A stretch of 64,000 nt of DNA from Trypanosoma brucei (lineage: Eukaryota). This document shows, piece after piece, positions 1 through 53,882 of this stretch. The notes beneath the pieces were generated by a model, which saw only the letters and a list, made by a program, of their open reading frames with translations, made no database searches and had not been told where the DNA came from. The DNA is taken from positions 2,272,001 through 2,336,000 of the forward strand of contig CM000207.1 of NCBI GenBank assembly GCA_000002445.1, written 5' to 3'. Numbering within the stretch: position 1 is the stretch's first letter; each line of letters starts with the position of its first letter. Both the position numbers and the translations under genes were made by a program.

Positions 1-988
1 CTATATCTATATCTATATCTATATATATCTATATATGCAAATATAATTATACTATAGCTTATGGTTTTCTTGCATATCTGTATAAGCGCGTTGGGGTTCT
101 TGATGGGTGCTTTCATGGCTTATACGTGCTCGTTTCTCCCGTTCATTTTTACGCAGTCGGACAATTTCATGTCGCTCTTTCCATTGCAATTACTCATTTT
201 CATTTTACACATCACTTTCTTACACATATAGGCGCTTTAAAGTCTGCTGCCCGCCGTTTTCAATGGCGGTCGGCATGCCCCTCTACATGCCTACTGAGCA
301 GGCGGACGGGCCCCGGCATGGCAACACCAAATATCCCCTTTCAGGGTTTCGCCTCATTTTGCCGATGTTCTTAACCTGGTTATACCCGCAATATGCCAGC
401 TGCACGTTCAGTTCGTGATGTTATATACTTTTCCAATTTTGGGGCCGGCCCCCGCCCAATCATCACCCGCCGCTAATAAACGGCGGCAGCAATAACAGCG
501 AGCATACCGCCGGCCAGCCACAGAGCCGAAAGAAGCCGGCCTGCGCGCCCCTATTCATGTTATTAGCCGCCATTAAGCATTATATTACACTCAGCTCAAC
601 CGTCCTTCTTCTTTGCGTTGTTGTTGTCGCCGTTGTGTTCTATATAAAGTTTATCGGCGGAGGCGCCCCTGGCTCCTCCCCATCACCCCCTGCCCACCCT
701 CCAAAATCTGGCCGCCGCCGGCTGGTCCTGGCGCGCCCCAGAAACGCGTTTCTTTTATTGTTGGTTGATTGCCTTAATGTTCTGTTGCAGATGGCGATTC
801 ACCATTAAGCATTTAATATTTTAGAAATAAGAGAGCGCTGGTAAAAGACGGCGGGTCGCCGCCCACATGGTGGTTGCCGTTATGCACTATACCCCATGTA
901 GTATATATGCGGCCCCGCTTATTCCGCCCCCCTCCCCCATAACGCCTTAAGCACAAGACCCCTTTGTTTCCCATAAGTCTACCGACAC

Positions 989-1068
989 GTTTCTGGCACG
1001 ACAGTAAAATATGGCAAGTGTCTCAAAACTGCCTGTACAGCTTATTTTTGGGACACACCCATGCTTTC
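989..1068 (+). promoter_or_regulatory. SL RNA gene upstream promoter region (RNA pol II; position expected for the bipartite upstream element plus initiator). Equivalent regions lie at 2351-2430, 3747-3826, 5129-5208 and 6513-6592.
   Basis: This block sits at -80 to -1 relative to each SL gene and is conserved in all five copies. In T. brucei the SL promoter elements lie within about 70 bp upstream. The motifs themselves were not verified. Confidence 0.5.
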
Positions 1069-1213
1069 AACTAACGCTATTATTAGAACAGTTTCTGTAC
1101 TATATTGGTATGAGAAGCTCCCAGTAGCAGCTGGGCCAACACACGCATTTGTGCTGTTGGTTCCCGCCGCATACTGCGGGAATCTGGAAGGTGGGGTCGG
1201 ATGACCTCCACTC
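1069..1213 (+). ncRNA. SLRNA: SL RNA gene, copy 1. Mini-exon 1069-1107, splice-donor GT at 1108, and about 105 nt of intron up to the T-tract.
   Basis: AACTAACGCTATTATTAGAACAGTTTCTGTACTATATTG/GTATGAGAAGCTCCCAGTAGCAGCTGGGCCAACACACGCATTTGTGCTGTTGGTTCCCGCCGCATACTGCGGGAATCTGGAAGGTGGGGTCGGATGACCTCCACTC is followed by T5AT8. This matches the known T. brucei SL RNA of about 140 nt. Confidence 0.93.
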
Positions 1214-1262
1214 TTTTTATTTTTTTTATTTTTTTTATTTATTTTTTTTGATTTTTTTTATT
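1214..1262 (+). terminator. T-tract immediately 3' of the SL RNA gene (T5AT8AT8AT3AT8GAT8A). It is the presumptive SL RNA termination signal. Equivalents follow every full copy, at about 2576, 3972 and 5354.
   Basis: Long oligo(T) runs begin exactly where SL RNA homology ends. Kinetoplastid SL RNA transcription is known to terminate in a downstream T-tract. Confidence 0.55.
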
Positions 1263-1270
1263 TGCTATGC

Positions 1271-1364
1271 TGACACACACACTCACACACACTCACTCAC
1301 TCATATATATATATATATATATTTCTTTATTTATTTATTTGTTTATTTATTTATTTGTTTGTTT

Positions 1365-1395
<31 letters not shown>

Positions 1396-1400
1396 TATGC
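1271..1400. repeat. Compound microsatellite block inside each SL spacer: (CACT/CA)n, (TA)n, (TTTA/TTTG)n, (TATC)n, (TA)n. The tract lengths differ between units and account for the 1362-1396 bp unit-length variation. Equivalent blocks lie at about 2633-2800, 4027-4180, 5407-5565 and 1-40.
   Basis: This can be read directly from the sequence. For example, the (TATC)n tract is 5 units long in unit 1 and 8 or more in unit 2. Confidence 0.9.
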
Positions 1401-2430
1401 AAATATAATTATACTATAGCTTATGGTTTTCTTGCATATCTGTATAAGCGCGTTGGGGTTCTTGATGGGCGCTTTCATGGCTTATACGTGCTCGTTTCTC
1501 CCGTTCATTTTTACGCAGTCGGACAATTTCATGTCGCTCTTTCCATTGCAATTACTCATTTTCATTTTACACATCACTTTCTTACACATATAGGCGCTTT
1601 AAAGTCTGCTGCCCGCCGTTTTCAATGGCGGTCGGCATGCCCCTCTACATGCCTACTGAGCAGGCGGACGGGCCCCGGCATGGCAACACCAAATATCCCC
1701 TTTCAGGGTTTCGCCTCATTTTGCCGATGTTCTTAACCTGGTTATACCCGCAATATGCCAGCTGCACGTTCAGTTCGTGATGTTATATACTTTTCCAATT
1801 TTGGGGCCGGCCCCCGCCCAATCATCACCCGCCGCTAATAAACGGCGGCAGCAATAACAGCGAGCATACCGCCGGCCAGCCACAGAGCCGAAAGAAGCCG
1901 GCCTGCGCGCCCCTATTCATGTTATTAGCCGCCATTAAGCATTATATTACACTCAGCTCAACCGTCCTTCTCCTTTGCGTTGTTGTTGTCGCCGTTGTGT
2001 TCTATATAAAGTTTATCGGCAGAGGCGCCCCTGGCTCCTCCCCATCACCCCCTGCCCACCCTCCAAAATCTGGCCGCCGCCGGCTGGTCCTGGCGCGCCC
2101 CAGAAACGCGTTTCTTTTATTGTTGGTTGATTGCCTTAATGTTCTGTTGCAGATGGCGATTCACCATTAAGCATTTAATATTTTAGAAATAAGAGAGCGC
2201 TGGTAAAAGACGGCGGGTCGCCGCCCACATGGTGGTTGCCGTTATGCACTATACCCCATGTAGTATATATGCGGCCCCGCTTATTCCGCCCCCCTCCCCC
2301 ATAACGCCTTAAGCACAAGACCCCTTTGTTTCCCATAAGTCTACCGACACGTTTCTGGCACGACAGTAAAATATGGCAAGTGTCTCAAAACTGCCTGTAC
2401 AGCTTATTTTTGGGACACACCCATGCTTTC

Positions 2431-2575
2431 AACTAACGCTATTATTAGAACAGTTTCTGTACTATATTGGTATGAGAAGCTCCCAGTAGCAGCTGGGCCA
2501 ACACACGCATTTGTGCTGTTGGTTCCCGCCGCATACTGCGGGAATCTGGAAGGTGGGGTCGGATGACCTCCACTC
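2431..2575 (+). ncRNA. SLRNA: SL RNA gene, copy 2
   Basis: Identical to copy 1 and offset from it by +1362 bp. Confidence 0.93.
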
Positions 2576-3826
2576 TTTTTATTTTTTTTATTTTTTTTAT
2601 TTATTTTTTTTGATTTTTTTTATTTGCTATGCTGACACACACACTCACACACACTCACACACACTCACTCACTCATATATATATATATATATATATATAT
2701 TTCTTTATTTATTTATTTGTTTATTTATTTATTTGTTTGTTTATATCTATATCTATATCTATATCTATATCTATATCTATATATATCTATATATGCAAAT
2801 ATAATTATACTATAGCTTATGGTTTTCTTGCATATCTGTATAAGCGCGTTGGGGTTCTTGATGGGCGCTTTCATGGCTTATACGTGCTCGTTTCTCCCGT
2901 TCATTTTTACGCAGTCGGACAATTTCATGTCGCTCTTTCCATTGCAATTACTCATTTTCATTTTACACATCACTTTCTTACACATATAGGCGCTTTAAAG
3001 TCTGCTGCCCGCCGTTTTCAATGGCGGTCGGCATGCCCCTCTACATGCCTACTGAGCAGGCGGACGGGCCCCGGCATGGCAACACCAAATATCCCCTTTC
3101 AGGGTTTCGCCTCATTTTGCCGATGTTCTTAACCTGGTTATACCCGCAATATGCCAGCTGCACGTTCAGTTCGTGATGTTATATACTTTTCCAATTTTGG
3201 GGCCGGCCCCCGCCCAATCATCACCCGCCGCTAATAAACGGCGGCAGCAATAACAGCGAGCATACCGCCGGCCAGCCACAGAGCCGAAAGAAGCCGGCTT
3301 GCGCGCCCTTATTCATGTTATTAGCCGCCATTAAGCATTATATTACACTCAGCTCAACCGTCTTTATTCTTTGCGTTGTTGTTGTCGCCGTTGTGTTCTA
3401 TATAAAGTTTATCGGCGGAGGCGCCCCTGGCTCCTCCCCATCACCCCCTGCCCACCCTCCAAAATCTGGCCGCCGCCGGCTGGTCCTGGCGCGCCCCAGA
3501 AACGCGTTTCTTTTATTGTTGGTTGATTGCCTTAATGTTCTGTTGCAGATGGCGATTCACCATTAAGCATTTAATATTTTAGAAATAAGAGAGCGCTGGT
3601 AAAAGACGGCGGGTCGCCGCCCACATGGTGGTTGCCGTTATGCACTATACCCCATGTAGTATATATGCGGCCCCGCTTATTCCGCCCCCCTCCCCCATAA
3701 CGCCTTAAGCACAAGACCCCTTTGTTTCCCATAAGTCTACCGACACGTTTCTGGCACGACAGTAAAATATGGCAAGTGTCTCAAAACTGCCTGTACAGCT
3801 TATTTTTGGGACACACCCACGCTTTC

Positions 3827-3971
3827 AACTAACGCTATTATTAGAACAGTTTCTGTACTATATTGGTATGAGAAGCTCCCAGTAGCAGCTGGGCCAACAC
3901 ACGCATTTGTGCTGTTGGTTCCCGCCGCATACTGCGGGAATCTGGAAGGTGGGGTCGGATGACCTCCACTC
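3827..3971 (+). ncRNA. SLRNA: SL RNA gene, copy 3
   Basis: Identical SL exon and intron. The upstream flank has one substitution (CCCACGCTTTC versus CCCATGCTTTC). Confidence 0.92.
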
Positions 3972-4057
3972 TTTTTATTTTTTTTATTTTTTTTATTTAT
4001 TTTTTTTGATTTTTTTTATTTGCTATGCTGACACACACACTCACACACACTCACTCA

Positions 4058-4092
<35 letters not shown>

Positions 4093-5208
4093 TTATTTAT
4101 TTATTTGTTTATTTATTTATTTGTTTGTTTATATCTATATCTATATCTATATCTATATCTATATATATCTATATATGCAAATATAATTATACTATAGCTT
4201 ATGGTTTTCTTGCATATCTGTATAAGCGCGTTGGGGTTCTTGATGGGCGCTTTCATGGCTTATACGTGCTCGTTTCTCCCGTTCATTTTTACGCAGTCGG
4301 ACAATTTCATGTCGCTCTTTCCATTGCAATTACTCATTTTCATTTTACACATCACTTTCTTACACATATAGGCGCTTTAAAGTCTGCTGCCCGCCGTTTT
4401 CAATGGCGGTCGGCATGCCCCTCTACATGCCTACTGAGCAGGCGGACGGGCCCCGGCATGGCAACACCAAATATCCCCTTTCAGGGTTTCGCCTCATTTT
4501 GCCGATGTTCTTAACCTGGTTATACCCGCAATATGCCAGCTGCACGTTCAGTTCGTGATGTTATATACTTTTCCAATTTTGGGGCCGGCCCCCGCCCAAT
4601 CATCACCCGCCGCTAATAAACGGCGGCAGCAATAACAGCGAGCATACCGCCGGCCAGCCACAGAGCCGAAAGAAGCCGGCCTGCGCGCCCCTATTCATGT
4701 TATTAGCCGCCATTAAGCATTATATTACACTCAGCTCAACCGTCCTTCTTCTTTGCGTTGTTGTTGTCGCCGTTGTGTTCTATATAAAGTTTATCGGCAG
4801 AGGCGCCCCTGGCTCCTCCCCATCACCCCCTGCCCACCCTCCAAAATCTGGCCGCCGCCGGCTGGTCCTGGCGCGCCCCAGAAACGCGTTTCTTTTATTG
4901 TTGGTTGATTGCCTTAATGTTCTGTTGCAGATGGCGATTCACCATTAAGCATTTAATATTTTAGAAATAAGAGAGCGCTGGTAAAAGACGGCGGGTCGCC
5001 GCCCACATGGTGGTTGCCGTTATGCACTATACCCCATGTAGTATATATGCGGCCCCGCTTATTCCGCCCCCCTCCCCCATAACGCCTTAAGCACAAGACC
5101 CCTTTGTTTCCCATAAGTCTACCGACACGTTTCTGGCACGACAGTAAAATATGGCAAGTGTCTCAAAACTGCCTGTACAGCTTACTTTTGGGACACACCC
5201 ATGCTTTC

Positions 5209-5353
5209 AACTAACGCTATTATTAGAACAGTTTCTGTACTATATTGGTATGAGAAGCTCCCAGTAGCAGCTGGGCCAACACACGCATTTGTGCTGTTGG
5301 TTCCCGCCGCATACTGCGGGAATCTGGAAGGTGGGGTCGGATGACCTCCACTC
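5209..5353 (+). ncRNA. SLRNA: SL RNA gene, copy 4
   Basis: Identical SL exon and intron. The upstream flank has CTTACTTTTG where copies 1 and 2 have CTTATTTTTG. Confidence 0.92.
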
Positions 5354-5443
5354 TTTTTATTTTTTTTATTTTTTTTATTTTATTTTTTTTGATTTTTTTT
5401 ATTTGCTATGCTGACACACACACTCACACACACTCACTCACTC

Positions 5444-5474
<31 letters not shown>

Positions 5475-5526
5475 ATATATATATTTCTTTATTTATTTAT
5501 TTGTTTATTTATTTATTTGTTTGTTT

Positions 5527-5557
<31 letters not shown>

Positions 5558-6592
5558 TATGCAAATATAATTATACTATAGCTTATGGTTTTCTTGCATA
5601 TCTGTATAAGCGCGTTGGGGTTCTTGATGGGCGCTTTCATGGCTTATACGTGCTCGTTTCTCCCGTTCATTTTTACGCAGTCGGACAATTTCATGTCGCT
5701 CTTTCCATTGCAATTACTCATTTTCATTTTACACATCACTTTCTTACACATATAGGCGCTTTAAAGTCTGCTGCCCGCCGTTTTCAATGGCGGTCGGCAT
5801 GCCCCTCTACATGCCTACTGAGCAGGCGGACGGGCCCCGGCATGGCAACACCAAATATCCCCTTTCAGGGTTTCGCCTCATTTTGCCGATGTTCTTAACC
5901 TGGTTATACCCGCAATATGCCAGCTGCACGTTCAGTTCGTGATGTTATATACTTTTCCAATTTTGGGGCCGGCCCCCGCCCAATCATCACCCGCCGCTAA
6001 TAAACGGCGGCAGCAATAACAGCGAGCATACCGCCGGCCAGCCACAGAGCCGAAAGAAGCCGGCCTGCGCGCCCCTATTCATGTTATTAGCCGCCATTAA
6101 GCATTATATTACACTCAGCTCAACCGTCCTTCTCCTTTGCGTTGTTGTTGTCGCCGTTGTGTTCTATATAAAGTTTATCGGCAGAGGCGCCCCTGGCTCC
6201 TCCCCATCACCCCCTGCCCACCCTCCAAAATCTGGCCGCCGCCGGCTGGTCCTGGCGCGCCCCAGAAACGCGTTTCTTTTATTGTTGGTTGATTGCCTTA
6301 ATGTTCTGTTGAAGATGGCGATTCACCATTAAGCATTTAATATTTTAGAAATAAGAGAGCGCTGGTAAAAGACGGCGGGTCGCCGCCCACATGGTGGTTG
6401 CCGTTATGCACTATACCCCATGTAGTATATATGCGGCCCCGCTTATTCCGCCCCCCTCCCCCATAACGCCTTAAGCACAAGACCCCTTTGTTTCCCATAA
6501 GTCTACCGACACGTTTCTGGCACGACAGTAAAATATGGCAAGTGTCTCAAAACTGCCTGTACAGCTTACTTTTGGGACACACCCATGCTTTC

Positions 6593-6651
6593 AACTAACG
6601 CTATTATTAGAACAGTTTCTGTACTATATTGGTATGAGAAGCTCCCAGTAG
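6593..6651 (+). pseudogene. Truncated terminal SL RNA gene. It keeps the 39-nt exon plus 20 nt of intron, then diverges (GAATTATCCG where intact copies have CAGCTGGGCC). This is the 3' boundary of the SL array.
   Basis: The upstream promoter-like flank is intact and identical to copy 4. Homology to the intact copies stops after ...GCTCCCAGTAG at 6651. Confidence 0.85.
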
Positions 6652-7049
6652 GAATTATCCGTACTTGGGGTCAATTTTTCGGGAAGAGAAAGAAGTAAGA
6701 AATCGCTGCATTTATGATATCGATAGGAAAGGAAGGAAAACCTCAAAACCAAAAAAGTCTTGTTTTGGGGGTTCGAACCCGGACCTCCAAAACACAAACA
6801 CAATTAGGAGAGGAGTGTTGCCAGTTGGGCTCTTTCGACAAATCGGAGGAAAAATTGAAAATTTATGCTCAGATGAAATATACCAAATCGTACATATCGA
6901 AGAGAAAAAACATAGGTGTACAAACGGTGCACACGTAGAAAAAAGTAGCGGAATTGATAGAACTCAGGTAAATAAACCCATTACAGAAATCAGCGGATCA
7001 GTTTCTTTCTTGGGACAGAATATCGGGAGGTTGGATGTCAAAAAGTCAC

Positions 7050-8920
7050 CCGAAAATGAATATTTAGAAAAAATCAACTGTGGTCAAAACGACATAATGA
7101 CCACAAAAAATTGTCGCTACGCAGACTTTCGTAGCGCATTTGAAAGGGCTCGACCAGCCCAATGCATGAGTAACAACGGTTACTGCGACAAAGAGGTCAC
7201 AAAAAAATTAGGTGCTGCCGAACCTAAAATTTTTTCAAAAAATGGAAATTTTGAAAAAATTAACCGTGGTCAAAACGACATGACGACCACAAAAAATTGT
7301 CGCTACGCAGACTTTCGTAGCGCATTTGAAAGGGCTCGACCAGCCCAATGCATGAGTAACAACGGTTACTGCGACAAAGAGGTCACAAAAAAATTAGGTG
7401 CTGCCGAACCTAAAATTTTTTCAAAAAATGGAAATTTTGAAAAAATTAACCGTGGTCAAAACGACATGACGACCACAAAAAATTGTCGCTACGCAGACTT
7501 TCGTAGCGCATTTGAAAGGGCTCGACCAGCCCAATGCATGAGTAACAACGGTTACTGCGACAAAGAGGTCACAAAAAAATTAGGTGCTGTCGAACCTAAT
7601 ATTTTTTCAAAAAATGGAAATTTTGAAAAAATTAACCGTGGTCAAATCGACATGACGACCACAAAAAATTGTCGCTACGCAGACTTTCGTAGCGCATTTG
7701 AAAGGGCTCGACCAGCCCAATGCATGAGTAACAACGGTTACTGCGACAAAGAGGTCACAAAAAAATTAGGTGCTGCCGAACCTAAAATTTTTTCAAAAAA
7801 TGGAAATTTTGAAAAAATTAACCGTGGTCAAATCGACATGACGACCACAAAAAATTGTCGCTACGCAGACTTCCGTAGCGCATTTGAAAGGGCTCGACCA
7901 GCCCAATGCATGAGTAACAACGGTTACTGCGACAAAGAGGTCACAAAAAAATTAGGTGCTGTCGAACCTAATATTTTTTCAAAAAATGGAAATTTTGAAA
8001 AAATTAACCGTGGTCAAAACGACATGACGACCACAAAAAATTGTCGCTACGCAGACTTTCGTAGCGCATTTGAAAGGGCTCGACCAGCCCAATGCATGAG
8101 TAACAACGGTTACTGCGACAAAGAGGTCACAAAAAAATTAGGTGCTGTCGAACCTAATATTTTTTCAAAAAATGGAAATTTTGAAAAAATTAACCGTGGT
8201 CAAATCGACATGACGACCACAAAAAATTGTCGCTACGCAGACTTTCGTAGCGCATTTGAAAGGGCTCGACCAGCCCAATGCATGAGTAACAACGGTTACT
8301 GCGACAAAGAGGTCACAAAAAAATTAGGTGCTGTCGAACCTAATATTTTTTCAAAAAATGGAAATTTTGAAAAAATTAACCGTGGTCAAATCGACATGAC
8401 GACCACAAAAAATTGTCGCTACGAAGACTTCCGTAGCGCATTTGAAAGGGCTCGACCAGCCCAATGCATGAGTAACAACGGTTACTGCGACAAAGAGGTC
8501 ACAAAAAAATTAGGTGCTGTCGAACCTAATATTTTTTCAAAAAATGGAAATTTTGAAAAAATTAACCGTGGTCAAATCGACATGACGACCACAAAAAATT
8601 GTCGCTACGCAGACTTCCGTAGCGCATTTGAAAGGGCTCGACCAGCCCAATGCATGAGTAACAACGGTTACTGCGACAAAGAGGTCACAAAAAAATTAGG
8701 TGCTGTCGAACCTAATATTTTTTCAAAAAATGGAAATTTTGAAAAAATTAACCGTGGTCAAATCGACATGACGACCACAAAAAATTGTCGCTACGCAGAC
8801 TTCCGTAGCGCATTTGAAAGGGCTCGACCAGCCCAATGCATGAGTAACAACGGTTACTGCGACAAAGAGGTCACAAAAAAATTAGGTGCTGTCGAACCTA
8901 ATATTTTTTCAAAAAATGGA
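7050..8920 (+). repeat. 186-bp tandem satellite, about 10 copies, + orientation. The unit is ...AAAATTGTCGCTACGCAGACTTTCGTAGCGCATTTGAAAGGGCTCGACCAGCCCAATGCATGAGTAACAACGGTTACTGCGACAAAGAGGTCACAAAAAAATTAGGTGCTG(C/T)CGAACCTAA(A/T)ATTTTTTCAAAAAATGGAAATTTTGAAAAAATTAACCGTGGTCAAA(A/T)CGACATGACGACCAC
   Basis: The exact period is 186 bp; for example, GGTCAAAACGACAT occurs at 7082 and again at 7268. Each unit contains a perfect 7-bp stem hairpin, CGCTACG-N8-CGTAGCG. The six-frame ORF 6665..8971 is a periodic 62-aa repeat. Confidence 0.9.
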
Positions 8921-9149
8921 AACCATTTTTTTGCGACCAATTTTTATTTGAGCATTGCAATGGTCTATTGAAATTCGTGAAAATGCACTACTCGGATCTT
9001 CGTAGTGATCACTTTTTCGACCAGCTGCAATGTTGGAAATTTGCCTTTTTTCATCAATTTTTGATGTTTTCGGCTTTTTCCCCCTCTCTATATTTCTTGT
9101 TGCTTCGTTATGACAATAACCGTTGTTATTGCCTAATTCTACTCGTCCA
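8921..9149. repeat. Degenerate junction between the two oppositely oriented satellite blocks. It holds decayed + copies and then decayed - copies, and the orientation switches near 9050-9150.
   Basis: There is diverged + orientation unit-like sequence (TTCGTAGTGATCACTTTTTCGACCAGCTGCAATG) at about 8990-9040. There is diverged - orientation unit-like sequence (GCGCTACGGAAGTCTGCGTAGAAACCATG) at about 9160-9190. Confidence 0.7.
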
Positions 9150-11762
9150 TTCCGTGTAAATGCGCTACGGAAGTCTGCGTAGAAACCATGTTTATCGTTT
9201 TTGTCGGCCTGCGAAATTTGCTCTTTTTCTTTATTTTTTGAGCATTTTTCTTTTCCAACCGCCCCTATTTTTCTTATGACCTCTTTGTCGCAGTAACCGT
9301 TGTTACTCATGCATTGGGCTGGTCGAGCCCTTTCAAATGCGCTACGAAAGTCTGCGTAGCGACAATTTTTTGTGGTCGTCATGTCGATTTGACCACGGTT
9401 AATTTTTTCAAAATTTCCATTTTTTGAAAAAATATTAGGTTCGACAGCACCTAATTTTTTTGTGACCTCTTTGTCGCAGTAACCGTTGTTACTCATGCAT
9501 TGGGCTGGTCGAGCCCTTTCAAATGCGCTACGGAAGTCTGCGTAGCGACAATTTTTTGTGGTCGTCATGTCGATTTGACCACGGTTAATTTTTTCAAAAT
9601 TTCCATTTTTTGAAAAAATATTAGGTTCGACAGCACCTAATTTTTTTGTGACCTCTTTGTCGCAGTAACCGTTGTTACTCATGCATTGGGCTGGTCGAGC
9701 CCTTTCAAATGCGCTACGGAAGTCTTCGTAGCGACAATTTTTTGTGGTCGTCATGTCGTTTTGACCACGGTTAATTTTTTCAAAATTTCCATTTTTTGAA
9801 AAAATATTAGGTTCGACTGCACCTAATTTTTTTGTGACCTCTTTGTCGCAATAACCGTTGTTACTCATGCATTGGGCTGGTCGAGCCCTTTCAAATGCGC
9901 TACGGAAGTCTTCGTAGCGACAATTTTTTGTGGTCGTCATGTCGTTTTGACCACGGTTAATTTTTTCAAAATTTCCATTTTTTGAAAAAATATTAGGTTC
10001 GACAGCACCTAATTTTTTTGTGACCTCTTTGTCGCAATAACCGTTGTTACTCATGCATTGGGCTGGTCGAGCCCTTTCAAATGCGCTACGGAAGTCTGCG
10101 TAGCGACAATTTTTTGTGGTCGTCATGTCGTTTTGACCACGGTTAATTTTTTCAAAATTTCCATTTTTTGAAAAACTTTTAGGTTCGGCAGCACCTAATT
10201 TTTTTTGTGACCTCTTTGTCGCAATAACCGTTGTTACTCATGCATTGGGCTGGTCGAGCCCTTTCAAATGCGCTACGGAAGTCTGCGTAGCGACAATTTT
10301 TTGTGGTCGTCATGTCGATTTGACCACGGTTAATTTTTTCAAAATTTCCATTTTTTGAAAAAATATTAGGTTCGACAGCACCTAATTTTTTTGTGACCTC
10401 TTTGTCGCAGTAACCGTTGTTACTCATGCATTGGGCTGGTCGAGCCCTTTCAAATGCGCTACGGAAGTCTTCGTAGCGACAATTTTTTGTGGTCGTCATG
10501 TCGTTTTGACCACGGTTAATTTTTTCAAAATTTCCATTTTTTGAAAAAATATTAGGTTCGACTGCACCTAATTTTTTTGTGACCTCTTTGTCGCAATAAC
10601 CGTTGTTACTCATGCATTGGGCTGGTCGAGCCCTTTCAAATGCGCTACGGAAGTCTTCGTAGCGACAATTTTTTGTGGTCGTCATGTCGTTTTGACCACG
10701 GTTAATTTTTTCAAAATTTCCATTTTTTGAAAAAATATTAGGTTCGACAGCACCTAATTTTTTTGTGACCTCTTTGTCGCAGTAACCGTTGTTACTCATG
10801 CATTGGGCTGGTCGAGCCCTTTCAAATGCGCTACGGAAGTCTTCGTAGCGACAATTTTTTGTGGTCGTCATGTCGTTTTGACCACGGTTAATTTTTTCAA
10901 AATTTCCATTTTTTGAAAAAATATTAGGTTCGACTGCACCTAATTTTTTGGCGACCTCTTTGTCGCAATAACCGTTGTTACTCATGCATTGGGCTGGTCG
11001 AGCCCTTTCAAATGCGCTACGGAAGTCTGCGTAGCGACAATTTTTTGTGGTCGTCATGTCGATTTGACCACGGTTAATTTTTTCAAAATTTCCATTTTTT
11101 GAAAAAATATTAGGTTCGACAGCACCTAATTTTTTTGTGACCTCTTTGTCGCAGTAACCGTTGTTACTCATGCATTGGGCTGGTCGAGCCCTTTCAAATG
11201 CGCTACGAAAGTCTGCGTAGCGACAATTTTTTGTGGTCGTCATGTCGATTTGACCACGGTTAATTTTTTCAAAATTTCCATTTTTTGAAAAAATATTAGG
11301 TTCGACAGCACCTAATTTTTTTGTGACCTCTTTGTCGCAGTAACCGTTGTTACTCATGCATTGGGCTGGTCGAGCCCTTTCAAATGCGCTACGGAAGTCT
11401 GCGTAGCGACAATTTTTTGTGGTCGTCATGTCGATTTGACCACGGTTAATTTTTTCAAAATTTCCATTTTTTGAAAAAATATTAGGTTCGACAGCACCTA
11501 ATTTTTTTGTGACCTCTTTGTCGCAGTAACCGTTGTTACTCATGCATTGGGCTGGTCGAGCCCTTTCAAATGCGCTACGGAAGTCTTCGTAGCGACAATT
11601 TTTTGTGGTCGTCATGTCGTTTTGACCACGGTTAATTTTTTCAAAATTTCCATTTTTTGAAAAAATATTAGGTTCGACTGCACCTAATTTTTTGGCGACC
11701 TCTTTGTCGCAATAACCGTTGTTACTCATGCATTGGGCTGGTCGAGCCCTTTCAAATGCACT
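9150..11762 (-). repeat. The same 186-bp satellite, about 14 copies, inverted (- orientation). Together with the + block it forms a head-to-head, palindrome-like arrangement.
   Basis: The reverse complement of the unit is repeated with period 186. The minus-strand ORFs 8909..10126 and 10179..11729 translate to the same 62-aa periodic peptide as the + strand ORF. Confidence 0.9.
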
Positions 11763-12796
11763 ACTTGAATGTTTGTGACGAGTTTTTGCTTTCTACTTCA
11801 TTGATAAGGGGAAATTCTTCATTTTACCTTTTCTTGACATTTTTTTTTTTGCCTCTCAGCCCTTTTACCTCTTTACCCTTATTTTCTTGTAAATAACTGT
11901 TGGTACTATCGGAAATATTTGGCCGATTTTTTGCAAGAGCTATCACTAAATGTTTATGAAGGTATATGGGTACAAAGGCAAAAATACCAGAGTGTGGAAA
12001 ATATCATCATAGCAATACTAGGGGCAAGTATTCAAAATTCGATCACATCGGAAGCTTCAACCATTTCGGATGATCAGAGCACGTATTTCAACTTATTCAA
12101 CGAGATCTTTCCACTGTATATAACACCGATTCTTCAAAGAAAGTGTTTTTAAAGGCCACAGCGGGGGAAGGGCAAAAACAGGAAAATTATATGAAAAAAT
12201 GAAGGATCAAAAATGAGTTCAACGATATTCAAAAACCTAACCATTTCGACTGGTCAGATAGTGCTTTTCAAAGATCTCAATTGAATTATTTTTAAACACA
12301 ATATCTGACCGGTCGTAATGGTTAGGTTTTTGAATATCGTCGAACTCATTTTAATTTATACTTTGTGCCTTCCCCCCATTTTGTGGGTGACTTTCTTTTT
12401 CAGGTCCCCTCATCTTTTCTTCCACATGTTGAAAAGGATAACCATAGCGCAATATAGATATACATATCCAAGGCCAGTGAAATCCCCTTTCTTTGAATAC
12501 ACCATCATTTATTTCTTTAAAGGCTAACGTTTAATTTATTTTCTTCTGGCGCTGAATATAATTTTTTTCTTCTCCATTTTTTAGTCTCTTTTTTCTGAGG
12601 TGGCCAGCCTTACCTTTTTTAGCTTCGACCAGTGGAGAATGGTTCGAACCGCCAGATGTGTTTCTCCTAATTCAAAATTATCTCGTTTCCGTAAAGTCGT
12701 TACACGCAATATCAATCGTCAAGGCAGATTAAAAAAACTGTTCTAATAGTATCTTATCACTTATTTTCATTGGTTTTTCTGTTTCCATATATTATT

Positions 12797-14176
12797 TTAG
12801 AGCCTTCTGGCTTTCTCCATTGCCTCTGCCGCACTGTAAACGTGAACATTCCCGCGGAGGACGGCTGCCACCACATCCGCAGTTATCCCGTCGAATGCGG
12901 TGGTTACCGTAAGTCGGTGGTCCTGGCCCCGGAGGACGCGGCGAAGCCAGTCACGACTTTTGCCGAAAATAGCACCGTTTGTAAGCATAACAAATGGTGC
13001 GAAGGCCAGTCCATTTTGTATCGCCCAGTAGCTGTACTTGCGCTCCTTTTCCTGGAAGCGCACCAATGCGGCTTTCATTGGATCTGCCGCAGCTACTGAG
13101 CGCTGACCTTGGGCGGTGTTTCCGACGGTCACGCGCCCTGGATACGTCACCGTGATGTCCGTCACCGCGTACGTATCCAACCCCGCAATGAGGATGTCCG
13201 GCCTCCTCTTGCTCACCTCATTTAGGCGTGGTTCCGTCGCGCACTGGAACCCACAGAGGCGAAGGCCGTTTGCGAACACGCTGTTAATGATGTCGTGTCG
13301 CATCTGCCTGGGTTTATTGTGCACTTTGGTGCACGTGTGGATGTGGTGATTGCTCGCGTCTTCACCACATAGGCATTTGACCCCCTCCGGTAGTACCCTC
13401 ACAAGTAAACGTTCCCGCAGGTACACTCCGAAAGTGGCGTCGTCCAGCCTCACCTGAGCATCCGTGAGGGGCCTGCCAGCTCCGGCGGCGGTATTGGCTG
13501 TAAAGACTTGACGATCAGCACCCCCAAGGGTGGCGTAGAGGTCGTCTTGCTGTCTTTGGTCAGCCTCCTCCGTCTTCCTCTGCTGGAGACCTTTCTCTCC
13601 GGCGCACTGGTGGGCGTACTCTGCCACTTGGGCCATCCGCCTAATTCCACAGCCACCCATGCTCACGGGCAGCGCCGCTATATTCCGGGCCCTTTCGGTC
13701 ATGGGTTGCCCGAGAATATGCTCCATTACCTGGGTGGTCCTCTCATCGAACCAGGAAGCCACCCGGTGTGTGTGTTGCATATCGTGGTTCCGCAACAGGA
13801 ATGTGATCCTTGGCATTGCCGACATCGCCAGAATCCTCCATCGTGTCCTGTTGTAGAGGGGTAGCTCCACGATTGCCTTGAAGAGGCGGTCTGTTTCCAT
13901 CACCTTCTTCACCCCCTCCCGAATCTCCTCGCTCATTGGATCCGGGGCCACGTACGCTCCAAGAACTCGCGCACACGCCTTCACCGCTGTCCCAAAGCCT
14001 GTGTCCCCAGTCAGTTCGAGGACCTCGGTTTTGTCCGCATTGTTGACGATTCCGAGTTTCTCTATCTGTTGGGCTATCGTCTTGTAAGCATGTTGTAGCT
14101 TATCTGGTGTTGCTGGTACCATGATATCGAGTAGATACGCCGTAAAGTGCTTGTTGGATTCTTTGCTGCGAGTCAT
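12797..14176 (-). pseudogene. Reverse-transcriptase C-terminal fragment (motif C onward plus Cys/His domain) of the degenerate retroelement.
   Basis: It is a 459-aa ORF. The catalytic YADD is mutated to YLLD, and the ORF starts just upstream of motif C with no RT N-terminal half in frame. Confidence 0.5.
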
Positions 14177-16316
14177 GAAGCGTTTTTAGAGTGATCGAAA
14201 AAACCAAGGACTCTGGTGCCATCCCCTGTCTTACTCTCTTCCCGTATATTGCCATTTTTGGCGGAGTCGCCCGTTTTCGTAAAAGCTCACTGCTCCTGCT
14301 GATCCATGGAAGGGGTGGACGAGGCGCTCTGGCGGGGACCACGCAGCGTCTTCATACACTGCTGTCAGTAATGTGCGTCTGTGGATGGCATTGTACGCGG
14401 TCCGACCATCCAGCATGGCCACACTGTCCTGTAGCCACGTTATCTAATCTTTCGCAGCCGTTCGCCCTGAGTTGCATTGATCGGTCCAACACGCCTTTTC
14501 ATATGGGGGCGGTGTTCGACTATATTGATGGTGAAATAGTGGCGAGTGGCGCCGGCTTTGCGTATACTCTATCCACCTCTGTTGTTCTGTCTTTTTTTGC
14601 TTGTTTTTTTGCTCTCTGCTATCATTAGGAGATGTAGAGAATCTTGTCAAGAAGTAGTTCTGCTTGGAGCGATGTTGCTATGCATTCTTCGTGGTTAGAG
14701 GGAATTCCCAATGGGCGAAGCAAATTAAAAGTGTCACAGATTTGCGTAACATGTCTACGTCGTGGGCACAGACGCATGAACTGTGTGGGCTTCTGAAACC
14801 GCAATCTGGTATATTCCCGAAAAAAGCGCATGGTCGGTGGCGCCAAACCCACCGCCAAATGAGTGAATTCTGTGAACGGATGTCTTGTGAGCTGAGTTCG
14901 CAAGTGGATGACAGTAACAACGATAAAAAACATTGCACTGTAATGCGTGAAACAGTGAGGGTCAACGTCGTTTTTTTCCTGTTTTAACAAACCTCCAACC
15001 TTTATGCCCTCAGTATTGAAAGAAATAACGTTGCATTTACCGTGAAGGGGTGCATTCACACCGTTTGGAAGTTCAGATCACCGGAGTGGCAGTGAACAGT
15101 ACGCCAAAAGCCTCCCCTCCCGTAGCGGTGCCGTGGCTGGTTGGAGAGGCATTGGTGAAGCGATCCTGAGCGTCCCTAAAAAGGAAGTGAAGGACAGGTG
15201 CTGAGCCGGTTTTGGACGCTCCATGTAATTTTCTGAGGAACTGTTGTTGTGCTTTACAACCGCTGCTACCACATGCAAATTGCTTTGCATAAGGGGAAGT
15301 TACACAATTTTGACTCGTTTGCGGATCGATCAAAAGTGGTGCAGCCCTCGGCACCCCGCTCTCTGTATCACAGCAACACGAATAACGGCAACACCCAGCA
15401 TAAAAGGGAATCCCAGTGACCAAGTCCAATCCCTCTCCTTACACAGCTTCAGCACTTGTTGCCGCGGTGGGCTCAAATGTATTGCCCTCTCGTAGCCAAG
15501 AGCGGGGCGTCCGAAGAAGTAAGTTGATGAAGAAGGTTCTCCGAAAGGCACCGCTGAAGTGAGTCAAAAACGAGAGGGCGAGGAAATGCCAGTAAGGGGT
15601 AGAAAGGGATCTATAGGGTAAATTGGAGCTGAAGCTCAGTGTACCGGATGGTCTCATGAAGCAGGCAAAGTGTGGAAATCTACCAGAGCTCGGGTGTATG
15701 GTCTTAACGCATGTGACGCGAATGCATTCCGAGGCCACCGTGCGGGCTCTAGGATCTGTTTTGTGGCTGCGCAGCAAAACTGAAGGTGAAAATAGGAAAC
15801 CACCGGCGTCCTCGCTGCGGCAGGACACCGGCAAGGTGAGTTTAGCTGCCGTTTTACCATGGGGGATGTGTACCGTTACGCAGAAAACAGCACTTGCACA
15901 GAGTTAGAGCGTGTAGGTCGGCAACCATTGAGCCATACAATCGAGTGCAGCGCTAGGGGAACGAGGAGGAAGCATTGGGTAGCAAATTTGAGTGAGCGCG
16001 CGCTGAATATCTGGGTGGGATTAGTGAAGTTCCTTACAGCATTGTCGCACCCCGATGATTCGGTTTCCCTGTAATTCATAGTCACAGCCTTTTTTGTGGG
16101 CGTATCATCCAGTGTGTCTTTGTGGAGGAAGTACGAGACGGATACGAGTGCTGTTGCGGTCATTGTTATTTTCTGCTGTGTTGCTGTTATTGTTGTTTCC
16201 TCGGTTAGATTAAGTGGTTTATCTCGTTGTTCTCGTCTCCTGCTAGAAGTGCGTTCCTGCAGTGTTTTTTTTTCATTGTTTGCTGTGTTCCTTTCGGTAT
16301 AGTACCGTGTGCGCAT
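12797..16316 (-). mobile_element. Degenerate non-LTR (ingi/DIRE-like) retrotransposon remnant. The 3' portion is still a 459-aa ORF. The 5' portion has decayed into a tiled series of short minus-strand ORFs broken by stops and frameshifts.
   Basis: The N-terminus of the 459-aa ORF reads FTAYLLDIMV...(28 aa)...LGIVNNADKTEVLEL. This matches the reverse-transcriptase motif C (F-x-A-Y-A-D-D-I, here decayed to YLLD) followed by the conserved G-h-x-h-N-x-x-K-T-x-h-h block of non-LTR RTs. A C-terminal Cys/His cluster (CLCGEDASNHHIHTC) is present. Contiguous minus-strand ORFs (14100-14342, 14231-14422, 14444-14650, 14625-15059, 15073-15429, 15439-15834, 15876-16316) tile the upstream region. Confidence 0.55.
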
Positions 16317-17393
16317 GCCAAGGTCTTCATGTCAATCTTTTCTCCATTTGCTGTATCGTTTTTTTACCGTTATGCAAAGGGTGTTTCCCTTATGTTCTTT
16401 TGTACAGCGGGTGCCTTCTCTACCCACGTCACTCCTCCTCACTAACACTGACTCGTAGAAAGTCTGCACAGTTTATATGTGCTACGAGTAATAGGATTCA
16501 TTCCCAACATTGCTTCTGACTTGTACTCATTTTTCATCACTATCATGTTTTACGTCTGCGTATAACCAGAGATAGGTGTCGCACGCAGGTACCATTAGGA
16601 AAAGAGACTTATGTGGGCTTCTGGCTCTCGTTTGGCGCCAGCCTTATCGAAGGCTACTAGGCTTCAGTTAGGTAATATTAAAACGGAATATGGCTACGTA
16701 TCAACGGCAGCAGGTTCCCAAGAAAAATGGGGCTTCTTATTCAAGGGAAGAAGGTACCCGTTGATTAGCTGCGGATATTCCATATGCCTTGTTTGCATCG
16801 CCATAACGGTGGTGGGCACGTATCAGCAATACCGCGATATGATTATCATGACGGAGCACATATCTTACGAAGATGTAAAGGACCGATGTCTGACACCGAT
16901 GCCTGGGTGGGCGCGCCTTCGAAGCCTGCAGATCGCTAGTCCACTTGGTCCGATGACATATCGAGACCCAACACCGCTGGATTGGCTGCCATTTGAGCTG
17001 AAACTTGGTTGTGTTAAGCAAGCATCGTACTAGGGAACGCATTATGCTACATTTGGTGTTTTAGGTGATCAAAATTTTGATGGGTGCTTTGGCGGAAAAA
17101 AGGAAAGGATATCGCGGAGAATAGAAGAACCGATAGCATGAGGTTGATACTTGATAGGGGTTAAGGTGGCGTATGACTTTATCGTAGTGAAACGGCGTCA
17201 GGGGTATTGGGTACATTATTTCTTGTTTTTTTTCGACGGATTTTTGCGATTGTATCTGCTCCGTTTCTGACACTGTTTCCGGCGTTGTCCCTCCCACACC
17301 CAAAGAGTTCTTCTTTCGTTGCTACTGTTAGTTTTCATCGCAGCTCATTGTTCCTGGTATTTTGAAATAGCTGTAGTTTTTTTAAAAAAAGGG

Positions 17394-18149
17394 ATGAAGG
17401 GCGTTGGCAGTAATAATTGTTTCATACAATTCCGTGCTGGGAAAATGCTTCTTACGGATGGCAAAGTTGTTGCGGATACGCGGAGGGGCACGTTATCTTT
17501 TTCAAAGGAATCAAATGGTGTTGTAAAGATGACTTGGGTATCGGGTTCTCATGCGGAACATTACGATCTTCCCTTGGGCCAAGTGAAGTTCAGCAGAGTC
17601 GATACGTGCACTACTGGTAGAGTGCTACTGTTCGACTTTGGCAAGGCCCAACCGCCGCTTTTTTTCTGGATGCAGGAAAAGTCAACAGACAATGACAACA
17701 CCTATTTTTCTGCAGTGGAGAATTCACTTGTCCAGAATCCCTCAGCTATTGGGAGTTTGCATACACACACCTCACCACTCACTGATCAAGCCCGTGCGAG
17801 ACTTGAGGGCTATTTCGCGTCGGCTCTGAACAACGTTCGTGGAGGTAGGGAACAAGACGTTGACTTGGTAAGCATTGTGGGTTCGGCGAAAGTGGTGGAC
17901 GCCTTACGAGCAGATCCCGATTACTTCATGTGTAGGTTGCATCCATTCTTACCCGAGGGAACCGATTCGACATCAGGTATTGTGGAGCACGTTATAAACC
18001 CTCAAGTATCCGCTGCTGCTGCTTCGTTGGGGTTGGTTCTGCAGACTCCCGACGGATTCCGCGAATTATGCGCGGCCTTTCACGTTGATGGGAAAAAGAC
18101 AGGGGTCGTGGGTTTCATAAGCGGATTACTGAAGCAAGTGAAGAAATGA
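17394..18149 (+). CDS. RPN13: Proteasomal ubiquitin receptor Rpn13/ADRM1 homolog (Pru domain). The six-frame ORF starts at 17319, but the likely start is the ATG at 17394 (MKGVGSNN...).
   Basis: CFIQFRAGKMLLTDGKVVADTRRGTLSF...GRVLLFDFGKAQPPLFFWMQE matches the Rpn13 Pru-domain signature (EFRAGKM...KRKG...RVYVLKF...RLFFWMQE). Confidence 0.85.
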   Translation: MKGVGSNNCFIQFRAGKMLLTDGKVVADTRRGTLSFSKESNGVVKMTWVSGSHAEHYDLPLGQVKFSRVDTCTTGRVLLFDFGKAQPPLFFWMQEKSTDNDNTYFSAVENSLVQNPSAIGSLHTHTSPLTDQARARLEGYFASALNNVRGGREQDVDLVSIVGSAKVVDALRADPDYFMCRLHPFLPEGTDSTSGIVEHVINPQVSAAAASLGLVLQTPDGFRELCAAFHVDGKKTGVVGFISGLLKQVKK

Positions 18150-18361
18150 GATGATTAAGACTCACGCAACCGCAAACGACTTCAAATTTCTATTCTCGCA
18201 ATGTGGTGTTTTGTTACCCGCACCGTTTCGTACAAATCGATGGGGATGGAAAGGGGGAAAAGTGTATGTCACCGCTATGACGATAGCTGTTGTTGTACTT
18301 TCAGACACGTCCCCCCTCTTAACTTCTTTTGAAAGAGTAGTACTGTTATTTTCTCTTACTT

Positions 18362-19539: not shown

Positions 19540-19550
19540 GGGGGGGGGGG
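19540..19550 (+). repeat. G11 homopolymer tract.
   Basis: Read directly from the sequence. Confidence 0.9.
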
Positions 19551-50251: not shown

Positions 50252-50299
50252 TATTGCGGGAAATGTGTGATCGATCATATAAGGCGCCGAGTATTCACA

Positions 50300-53880: not shown

Positions 53881-53882
53881 CA

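Follow-up and report, generated by a model that had tools for sequence, protein, structure and literature searches.

Two partial SLACS 5' ends, head-on, underlie the 62-aa repeat reading frames of a Trypanosoma brucei chromosome 9 locus

[quoted passage not shown] As Aksoy et al. reportedly described in 1990, it carries 185-bp repeats at its 5' end and makes a 49-bp target-site duplication. These 5' repeats are usually treated as 5' UTR, and ORF1 stands in the literature and in UniProt as a much shorter protein, of 45 kDa and without leader or repeats, than the consensus frame described below, which takes in both. The 5' monomers of mouse L1, tandem promoter units of ~200 bp, are non-coding promoters. 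Like the SLACS repeats, they are tandem units of ~200 bp that vary in copy number and open a LINE-like element at its 5' end, whereas SLACS uses the host SL promoter (PMC3447711) and its units are exactly 62 codons long and in frame with ORF1. SLACS belongs to the same clade of reverse transcriptase and REL-endonuclease elements (the CRE clade) as the fungal telomeric retrotransposons MoTeR and FoTeR; in elements of the latter type VNTRs occur preferentially towards the 5' end (PMC12857005), and internal repeat regions (RPT) have been reported in trypanosomatid CRE elements (PMC12278014), yet the repeats of MoTeR/FoTeR and of other CRE-clade elements are unrelated in sequence to the SLACS units.

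The window analysed here comprises 64,000 nucleotides of chromosome 9 in the T. b. brucei TREU927 reference assembly. Three long ORFs and a 62-aa periodic peptide, MTTTKNCRYADFRSAFERARPAQCMSNNGYCDKEVTKKLGAVEPNIFSKNGNFEKINRGQID, had drawn attention in an initial annotation of it, and all of them are present as claimed (ORF scan):

6665..8971, + strand: ORF of 768 aa
8909..10126, - strand: ORF of 405 aa
10179..11729, - strand: ORF of 516 aa

The underlying arrays lie at 7053-8922 on the + strand and, in antisense, at 9264-11764, each with a 98% match among its units, and the unit spacing is exactly 186 nt with the sole exception of one spacing of 187.

The SLACS 5' ends and their relatives

The stretch 6593-11786 consists of two partial SLACS 5' ends, placed head-on and fused at 8921 just before ORF1, and in its long ORFs the reading frame of the element itself survives as remnants. 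The elements of the region 6593-14452 are:

6593..6651, + strand: SL RNA gene nt 1-59 (the whole 39-nt SL exon and 20 nt of intron), from the SL start to the end of homology
6652..7093, + strand: SLACS 5' leader, from an alignment of four leaders
7094..8922, + strand: SLACS 186-bp (62-codon) tandem units, nine full and a 156-nt partial one
8911..8931, no strand: inverted junction AAAAAATGG-AAA-CCATTTTTT, the + copy reaching 8922 and the - copy 8921
8921..9382, - strand: a unit with a diverged 3' half and ~1.5 further diverged units, from nhmmer and a four-copy alignment
9383..11786, - strand: 12.9 SLACS 186-bp units, 5'-truncated at about unit position 13
11787..12826, no strand: non-SLACS flank adjoining the 5'-truncated - copy, collinear in both sister subspecies
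12797..14176, - strand: older SLACS relic, C-terminal part of ORF2 (XP_827645), from a protein match

The + copy has a canonical 5' junction (SL nt 1-59), a leader of ~440 nt and ~10 units of 186 bp, and the SL promoter region upstream of 6593 is identical to that of other SL copies. What had been read as a truncated SL gene was not cut at random; it forms the target-site copy and the 5' junction that are normal for a SLACS insertion: the same junction, SL nt 1-59 followed by GAATTATCC, is found in both T. b. gambiense copies, and the single T. b. equiperdum copy (L003b) has it too, but with A11 replacing SL nt 1-11. The 3' junction was read in T. b. equiperdum, where polyA is followed by SL nt 12; SL nt 11/12-59 measures 48-49 nt. 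For the two window copies no 3' junction falls inside the window. The - copy has lost its 5' end within the array and retains ~13 units and ~2.5 diverged units, which diverge ever more from 9382 down to 8921 while keeping the frame (nhmmer matches at 9382-9235, 9193-9090 and 9017-8875). Such diverged units are the usual 3' edge of the SLACS repeat region, in frame and leading to ORF1 in intact copies. Next to the - copy, the flank 11787-12826 is common to T. b. equiperdum and T. b. gambiense at 98.5-99% identity, and by blast the T. b. equiperdum sequence (L003) 1-12491 corresponds to window 24159-11688 and the T. b. gambiense DAL972 sequence (L004) 2-12377 to window 24150-11780. The relic holds a 459-aa ORF 100% identical to TREU927 XP_827645, 'SLACS reverse transcriptase, putative', and at the DNA level SLACS ORF2 is matched over 12827-14452.

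The sister subspecies show what such 5' ends normally lead to. In DAL972 two copies have the order SL nt 1-59, leader, 4.9 or 6.9 units, diverged units and ORF1; in L003 7.3 units of 186 bp are followed by diverged units, 3.6 kb, the ORF2 C-terminus, 3' UTR, polyA and SL from nt 12 onwards. The leaders are 97-98% identical to that of the window, and both the L003 element (12642-19552) and the L004 copies A and B run on into a C2H2 ORF1 and an ORF2 with reverse transcriptase and restriction-like endonuclease. By blast, L003 12642-14332 matches window 10627-8921 and diverges beyond; the two window copies are themselves cut at 8921 and lack continuity with ORF1 and ORF2. The window resembles SLACS in an insertion that hit an SL RNA gene and duplicated SL nt 12-59, in 5' tandem repeats of ~185-186 bp and variable copy number (~4.9, 6.9, 7.3, 10 and 13 units in five arrays, ~16 for the last with diverged units) and in sharing its leader; unlike full SLACS, its copies are truncated ahead of ORF1 and joined head-on. 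A satellite or centromeric repeat was rejected, the arrays of related loci always sitting between SLACS leader and ORF1, and so was an anonymous satellite with an accidental frame, the units being the SLACS 5' repeat region.

That the ORFs belong to a free-standing host gene for a Cys-containing repetitive protein, as their length and the peptide's not being of low complexity might suggest, has next to no probability in our view and is effectively refuted by the collinearity with SLACS. The + ORF had been given an ATG start at 6665, ~70 nt past the SL gene; the codon there is TTG and the gap is 14 nt, SL homology stopping at 6651. Upstream, at 6635, the frame is closed by a TGA; its first true ATG (7097) lies within the first repeat, and none precedes the repeats. 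The two supposed genes are convergent halves of one transposable element, and on the - strand an extra A (A8 for A7 at 10199-10206), a +1 frameshift, divides the frame into the ORFs of 405 and 516 aa. No gene is called here in the DAL972 or the T. b. equiperdum assembly. The suggested protein database search for the 62-aa motif found nothing: no annotated trypanosomatid protein carries the peptide, in a database that includes the annotated TREU927 proteins, and searches beyond T. brucei gave no homologues. Several gambiense units have Ser in place of the third Cys, Cys is lost in diverged units, and variation among units looks neutral (6 versus 15 alleles, see below).

Both window copies are dead. 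In the leader of the + copy the A-run at 6751-6756 is A6 rather than A7, which puts the family start codon, at 6714-6716, out of frame with the repeats; the T-run at 6675-6679 is T5 rather than T4, and translation from 6714 ends after 74 codons. The - copy carries the +1 A frameshift, and neither copy reaches ORF1. The earlier view that these ORFs are not a functional gene is supported for this locus.

The repeat frame and its continuity with ORF1

The variants listed among copies (A/V, K/N, N/I, A/E and TTT/TTC) are all real; TTT/TTC is indeed synonymous, although it is joined by TAC/TAT, GCT/GCA and ACA/ACC, which the list had missed. The attribution of this variation to neutral drift is supported, in that 6 synonymous and 15 nonsynonymous variant alleles, against an expected synonymous share of 21-27%, cannot be told from neutrality, and none of the variant alleles counted in 33 units from three subspecies creates a stop. 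In the diverged units dN/dS is ~0.5, and the three codon positions show 49/49/55 differences, with no third-position bias. When the unit is shuffled by dinucleotides, the given frame is open with P = 0.045 and any of the six with P = 0.30, therefore the array ORF alone is unremarkable. The null explanation offered at the outset, that a period of 186 = 3 x 62 with one stop-free frame makes any such array an ORF, accounts for the array and fails for the continuity of the frame through leader, diverged units and linker.

This continuity is seen in the sister subspecies, where, lesions of single copies aside, the frame has no stop in the 127 codons of the non-repeat leader (shuffle P = 0.0002), the 114 codons of the diverged units (P = 0.0016) and a 262-codon linker into ORF1 (P < 0.0002); for leader and diverged units the joint shuffle probability is ~3e-7. 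In T. b. gambiense it begins in the leader with an ATG 121-122 nt past the SL start and leads through leader, repeats and diverged units into ORF1. As they stand, the DAL972 copies have ATG-initiated ORFs of 455 and 653 aa, and each is 1 nt short of an ORF of at least 1,099 codons, the correction sites differing between them: in L004A restoring one T gives 1,099 open codons from the ATG, whereas in L004B correction of A8 to A7, the state of three of the four copies, opens 1,148 codons; the stop count is 1 for this frame and 82 and 56 for the two others. All five copies of the extension that were examined have at least one frameshift or nonsense lesion, none being intact, and each frame-breaking lesion is private to one copy. 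L003 stems from a long-read assembly with many indels and cannot confirm the continuity of the frame.

These observations bear on whether the repeats are instead a VNTR of a non-coding 5' UTR, comparable to the mouse L1 promoter monomers, with a frame that is open simply because the period is divisible by three and one frame lacks stops. The shuffled units, the neutral-like variants and the lack of homologues are in keeping with this, as are the lesion found in each copy examined, the low GC3 (0.32-0.37 in leader, units and diverged units versus 0.56-0.67 in linker, ORF1, ORF2 and host genes) and the unconfident fold, AlphaFold giving none (pLDDT 35). It leaves unexplained that the non-repeat leader and the diverged units, the latter with ~60% nucleotide identity to the unit, are stop-free and in phase with the unit frame, the linker and ORF1, and that the ATG stands 5 codons past the upstream stop. 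We put its chances at about one in four, and infer that at the family level the repeat frame of SLACS is coding, now or recently; taken together with the two head-on SLACS 5' ends, we consider this reading quite likely to be right.

The units may owe more to their fold than to their frame. If they were mainly structured RNA or DNA elements, for instance a protein-binding motif in many copies, comparable to the 5' PBM RNA of R2, their open frame would be secondary. In favour of this, the unit folds with a z-score of -4.73, the diverged units with -4.85 and the leader with -2.47, each better than any shuffle, and G:C to A:T double changes preserve hairpins H1 and H4 in the diverged units. The consensus structure is nevertheless partly lost there, with 15/42 and 6/19 scorable pairs broken, Rfam gives no match, and with three independent diverged units the covariation is anecdotal. 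As the main explanation we consider structure unlikely, a little more so than the non-coding VNTR.

Under the coding reading we propose the following. SLACS is transcribed from SL +1 (PMC3447711); the SL promoter would thus start its RNA there, and the 5' end would bear the SL. After a uORF of 6 codons, the AUG at +121/122 would open a frame that begins with the leader, goes on with n x 62-aa units and then the diverged units, and reaches the C2H2 ORF1 by way of a basic linker. With a period of 186 = 3 x 62, copy number would be free to vary (4.9 to ~16 units, including diverged ones) without breaking the frame. SLACS ORF1 may start at AUG +122 and have an N-terminus of 62-aa repeats variable in copy number, and selection appears to act mainly on openness of the frame and on RNA or DNA hairpins, less on the peptide sequence.

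The inverted junction

At the border of its SL RNA array, the TREU927 reference has at 8921 a junction that probably reflects either rearrangement or mis-assembly. Intact elements read on at this point as MVRNLRSS... into ORF1. It may well be an assembly chimera, a reading to which we give slightly less than an even chance, the true locus being like that of T. b. equiperdum, with the flank-side copy running into ORF1 and ORF2. L003, which has no Ns, contains the same flank and array running into ORF1/ORF2 and has its SL genes on the opposite strand relative to the window, and the DAL972 copies run into ORF1 as well. The SL array is collapsed here to 5 copies, neither the phase nor the variant order of one arm mirrors that of the other, and a survey of long inverted repeats in TREU927 lists none on chromosome 9 (PMC3447711). 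Against a chimera, the junction sequence is well defined, with a 2-nt overlap and a 9-nt inverted microhomology between the copies, as at real template-switch or inversion junctions, and DAL972 is gapped at the critical points and provides no independent test.

Were the palindrome real, the last SL promoter of TREU927-like strains, at 6593, would read ~1.8 kb of sense repeats into their inverted complement, a hairpin 'trap' whose dsRNA would seed SLACS siRNAs, much as at hairpin endo-siRNA or piRNA-cluster loci, here in an early-branching eukaryote. The SL promoter and SL nt 1-59 upstream are intact, the arms measure 1.8 and 2.9 kb, with units 97-100% identical within both, and long inverted repeats of T. 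brucei do yield siRNAs (PMC3447711). SLACS siRNAs, moreover, are abundant: they make up 26% of AGO1-bound reads, come from the 5' half only, are antisense-biased twofold and arise from a dsRNA source left unexplained (PMC3447711). The siRNA loci IR1-IR7 (Tschudi et al. 2012) are alike in their kilobase-scale, near-identical inverted arms in the TREU927 assembly; their list lacks this locus, whose arms are tandem transposon repeats rather than unique sequence, and its junction is seen in neither of the other two assemblies, the orthologous place in L003 having no inverted arms. The T6 run in each unit may also terminate transcription from the SL promoter, and the reported siRNAs span the 5' half including ORF1 and not the repeats alone. 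On balance, a genuine head-on junction in TREU927-like strains that acts as a hairpin-RNA locus strikes us as improbable.

Related repeats and what a coding array would mean

The SLACS 186-bp array is absent from the T. cruzi and T. congolense relatives, and in the T. cruzi element that was examined no long tandem array is present. In the T. vivax element a 108-bp (36-codon) repeat of 2.9 copies lies between an ORF1-like zinc finger and the reverse transcriptase.

Our results dispose of two candidates, a repetitive Cys-protein gene and a new satellite, both of which are pieces of a long-known retrotransposon. The repeat region itself was already known, and its in-frame continuity with ORF1 may be unreported. 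If the frame is translated, SLACS ORF1 would be two to three times its annotated length and include a VNTR that codes for protein, and selection would have favoured the 186-bp (62-codon) period. A genuine inverted junction, for its part, would offer a concrete source of the dsRNA for SLACS siRNAs, whose origin the RNAi literature has left open.

The 186-bp arrays and their open reading frames

The arrays keep three long open reading frames, which the initial annotation had reported together with a 62-aa periodic peptide; all three appear in the ORF list and the peptide is common to them.

Arrays and open reading frames in the window
7053-8922, + strand: 186-bp array (Tandem Repeats Finder, 10.1 copies, 98% matches)
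9264-11764, - strand: reverse-complement 186-bp array (Tandem Repeats Finder, 13.4 copies, 98% matches)
6665..8971, + strand: 768-aa open reading frame (ORF list)
8909..10126, - strand: 405-aa open reading frame (ORF list)
10179..11729, - strand: 516-aa open reading frame (ORF list)

The distance from unit to unit is exactly 186 bp, bar one interval of 187 on the - arm that stems from a run of eight A instead of seven at 10199-10206, and it is this single extra A that breaks the - strand frame in two, the 405-aa ORF and the 516-aa ORF. The + ORF was thought to begin with an ATG at 6665, about 70 nt past a truncated spliced-leader (SL) gene; the codon at 6665 is TTG, the SL homology stops at 6651, leaving a gap of 14 nt, the upstream in-frame stop is the TGA at 6635 and the earliest true in-frame ATG is at 7097, within the first repeat. 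Predicted tryptic peptides of the unit include YADFR, SAFER, ARPAQCMSNNGYCDK, LGAVEPNIFSK, LGAAEPK and NGNFEK.

An array ORF is in itself not surprising. Upon dinucleotide-preserving shuffling of the unit, a given circular frame was without a stop in 4.5% of trials and at least one of the six frames in 30%. Among 33 complete units from three subspecies we counted 21 variant alleles; 6 are synonymous, 15 are nonsynonymous and none creates a stop, against an expected synonymous share of 21-27%. This low-power test is consistent with the neutral drift suggested previously, and the split of the variant alleles over codon positions (4/7/10) agrees with it. The null explanation, that a stop-free frame in a unit whose length is a multiple of three opens the whole array, thus holds for the window locus and for unit-level variation, but it fails as a full explanation because the frame belongs to SLACS itself, a CRE-clade non-LTR retrotransposon that inserts into SL RNA genes.

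Collinearity with SLACS copies of sister subspecies

The 459-aa ORF at 12797..14176 (- strand) matches, at 100% identity, XP_827645, which is annotated in T. b. brucei TREU927 as "SLACS reverse transcriptase, putative". The cluster members of this protein led us to two orthologous loci, one in T. b. equiperdum IVM-t1 (L003, without Ns), the other in T. b. gambiense DAL972 (L004, with three N gaps). A second TREU927 SLACS reverse transcriptase fragment, XP_827644 (636 aa), bears the accession immediately before that of this relic and lies outside the window, so that more SLACS sequence may adjoin it.

From 24159 to 11688 the window is collinear with the IVM-t1 locus through genes, SLACS relic and flank and into the - arm as far as its first half-unit. 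The IVM-t1 locus then carries 7.3 copies of the 186-bp unit and the same diverged units as the window, a stretch that matches window 10627 to 8921, followed by 3.6 kb absent from the window that hold the C2H2 ORF1 and the N-terminus of ORF2, the ORF2 C-terminus with 99% identity to window 14057-12827 and, beyond it, a 3' UTR, polyA and SL resuming at nt 12. Immediately beyond, L003 19838-20552 matches window 6603-7317, comprising SL to nt 59, the 6652-7093 segment and the array start. The DAL972 locus has two further copies, in which SL(1-59) is followed by the same leader, by 4.9 or 6.9 units, and by the diverged units and ORF1. The comparison thus identifies 6652-7093 as the 5' leader of SLACS, and the tandem 186-bp units as its 5' repeats. 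What had been labelled a truncated SL gene is really the canonical 5' junction of a SLACS insertion, as the same SL(1-59)-leader layout in DAL972 indicates. A SLACS 3' UTR in a T. equiperdum OVI contig (L002) is joined to SL and leader across an N gap only and is thus uninformative on their linkage.

SL nt 11/12-59 (48-49 nt) is duplicated at both SLACS ends. Aksoy et al. are said to have described SLACS in 1990 with a 49-bp target-site duplication and 185-bp repeats, which the 48-49-nt duplication and the 186-bp units match. CRE-clade elements may have one or two internal repeat regions (PMC12278014); a literature text search for SLACS with 185/186 bp repeats found nothing useful. What the window contains is a known feature of this transposon, in the form of two dead fragments, and neither a host gene nor a new satellite. 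A centromeric (CIR147) repeat, a minichromosomal (177-bp) repeat and a snoRNA cluster, all considered as identities, were dropped after SLACS collinearity had been shown.

The 5' region of SLACS is exceptionally rich in hairpins: the unit RNA (7094-11786) is predicted to fold far better than its shuffles, with z = -4.73 (0/200 shuffles as good), the diverged units (8921-9276) with z = -4.85 (0/100 shuffles as good) and the leader (6593-7093) more weakly, with z = -2.47. Two hairpins, CGCTACG-N8-CGTAGCG and AGTAAC-AACG-GTTACT, survive in the diverged units with double changes from G:C to A:T, and many other consensus pairs are broken there; with three independent diverged units, hairpin retention is suggestive of conserved structure and not proof of it. 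The leader includes a 15-bp stem around GGTTCGAACC at ~6760-6795. Neither Rfam, searched at both gathering and E-value thresholds, nor ARAGORN returned anything relevant; the GGTTCGAACC motifs are not tRNA.

Relatives in other trypanosomes differ in this region. The T. congolense SLACS relative, on a contig with fragmented ORFs, lacks the 186-bp array; the SL spacer on its contig has a 190-bp repeat of 1.8 copies that is unrelated, and a search that took T. congolense ORF1 as the intermediate towards ORF1 of T. brucei gave matches in T. congolense only. The T. cruzi element (L005) has neither a homologous array nor any long tandem array. A SLACS-like element of T. vivax also lacks a homologous 186-bp array; it bears a 108-bp (36-codon) x 2.9 tandem repeat between the C2H2 ORF1-like region and the reverse transcriptase (L006 6481-6795), whose period is likewise a multiple of 3 and whose sequence is unrelated to the 186-bp unit. 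T. vivax is too GC-rich for the openness of an ORF to be informative.

The head-on junction and the SL locus

The window copies are truncated and frame-damaged, and by the alignments they are two SLACS 5' ends facing each other.

SLACS copies and SL genes in the window
1-6592 region, + strand: SL starts at 1069, 2431, 3827, 5209 and 6593, repeat lengths 1362, 1396, 1382 and 1384 bp
6593-8922, + strand: + copy, with SL 1-59, leader and 9.8 units
8921-11786, - strand: - copy, with 12.9 units and ~2.5 diverged units, beginning at unit position ~13 beside non-SLACS flank

The junction of flank and - copy is common to the other two subspecies, and is therefore old and real. The two copies meet at 8921/8922 inside AAAAAATGG-AAA-CCATTTTTT (8911-8931), with the junction sequence AAAAAATGGAAACCATTTTTTT. 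The other assemblies proceed from the junction point with ATGGTTAGAAACTTGAGG... (MVRNLRSS...) into ORF1, and AGAAACTTGAGGTCATCTGAACC is the ORF1-ward continuation expected if the window junction is a mis-assembly. As the arms are not mirror images, in either phase or variant order, the junction is not a simple fold-back; a simple palindromic duplication was rejected, the left leader and the right flank being without similarity. We hold two origins to be about equally probable, a microhomology-mediated inversion and a chimera in a collapsed reference. In IVM-t1 the SL genes are on the other strand with respect to the flank; the head-on junction is seen in TREU927 only, among the three assemblies compared, and the SL array is collapsed in the reference, since just five copies are present. 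The SL repeats differ in length owing to (AT)n, (CA)n and T-rich microsatellites of their spacer.

Several other sequences of the locus may be mentioned. Between array and relic, the flank holds a 63-nt inverted repeat (12210-12272 / 12290-12352, 89% complementary, 17-nt spacer). At 12735-12751 (- strand) a 17-nt stretch matches the SL exon at 94% (window 6602-6618, ~SL nt 10-26; blast E = 0.68), ~50 nt past the ORF2 stop of the relic, which is without the usual ~370-nt 3' UTR. This stretch may be a remnant of the relic's former SL target, and if so, the locus edge once bore - strand SL genes, as in IVM-t1. The second SLACS of IVM-t1 is preceded by A11 and SL nt 12-59, not by promoter and SL nt 1-59 (L003 19780-19900), which looks like 3'-junction-type sequence fused to a 5' leader and suggests recombination between target-site duplicates or assembly collapse. 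Window 50000-54000 is a 4-kb AT-rich stretch (GC 0.27-0.36, several AT microsatellites) within a + strand gene cluster of 50-55% GC.

A proposed reading frame from the leader into ORF1

Three of four leaders have an ATG (window 6714), 5 codons past the upstream in-frame stop, that shares its frame with the repeats. The window + copy is the exception: its ATG is shifted out of frame by A6 in place of A7 at 6751-6756. It also has T5 in place of T4 at 6675-6679, and translation from 6714 meets a stop after 74 codons. In DAL972 copy B, an ATG at SL +122 opens a 653-aa ORF across leader, all units and diverged units, which ends there only because GGTCGCA(8)TGG is one A longer than in the three other copies. 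Reverting the run to A7 extends the open frame to 1,148 codons, as far as an assembly gap inside ORF1, with 1 in-frame stop, where the two remaining frames have 82 and 56. Copy A has a private lesion at another site, one T missing in the first diverged unit, and supplying this T gives an open frame of 1,099 codons that begins at the ATG at +121. The retained SL intron stub (window 6634-6651) holds a 6-codon uORF (ATG AGA AGC TCC CAG TAG; AUG at SL nt 42) ahead of the start codon at 6714.

Several observations speak against coding. At least one lesion is found in five of five copies of the extension, namely both window arms, DAL972 A and B and the second IVM-t1 copy, where it is a TAC to TAA nonsense change; GC3 is 0.32-0.37 in leader, units and diverged units versus 0.56-0.67 in linker, ORF1, ORF2 and host genes; the third Cys is replaced by Ser in several gambiense units and Cys residues are lost in the diverged units; and AlphaFold on 3 units was uninformative (pLDDT 35). 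A word-indexed search with the leader and 2 units found no protein with the unit peptide, for which a database search had been proposed, in 5.8 billion clustered sequences, which cover the annotated proteomes of TREU927, DAL972 and equiperdum. With the 405-aa ORF as query, an exhaustive phmmer search of 1.84 billion representatives gave 5 weak matches, all unrelated repeat proteins aligned repeat-on-repeat, none with the YADFRSAF or NNGYC motifs, and Pfam, searched with the leader peptide and the reconstructed leader-to-ORF1 protein, gave sub-threshold C2H2 only, in the ORF1 core, and nothing in the extension. Against a non-coding region stands the absence of stops where the repeat period does not enforce it: shuffled sequence was free of stops with a probability of 0.0002 over the 127 codons of the leader outside the repeats, 0.0016 over the 114 codons of the diverged units and <0.0002 over the 262 codons of the linker before ORF1. 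In IVM-t1, A7 of the first flank-side unit is a run of 140 A (L003 12485-12624), a poly-Lys tract in the unit frame; the homopolymer has either truly expanded or is an artefact of long-read assembly.

The diverged units have ~56-60% nucleotide identity to the unit, with differences spread evenly over codon positions (49/49/55) and a dN/dS of ~0.5, a ratio that protein-guided alignment biases downward. Their sequence has changed almost without restraint and yet kept the frame open, a pattern to be expected if the constraint is on uninterrupted translation into ORF1 and not on the peptide itself.

According to a passage of PMC3447711 that cites Patrick et al. 2008, SLACS is transcribed from +1 of the interrupted SL gene in a promoter-dependent manner. 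We propose that SLACS RNA would be made with SL already at its 5' end and that the AUG at +121/122 would begin a long ORF1, whose N-terminus would consist of the leader plus n x 62 aa, the unit peptide being probably disordered and weakly constrained. SLACS is de-repressed in AGO1-null and DCL2-null cells. Unit copy number ranges from 4.9 to ~16 (including diverged units) and the frame phase is kept across this range. Two points are possibly new: two copies joined head-on beyond an SL promoter that is intact, and a repeat frame continuous with ORF1; under the latter, the period of 186 bp, or 62 codons, would be tolerated or selected because only in-frame changes in copy number would leave ORF1 translatable.
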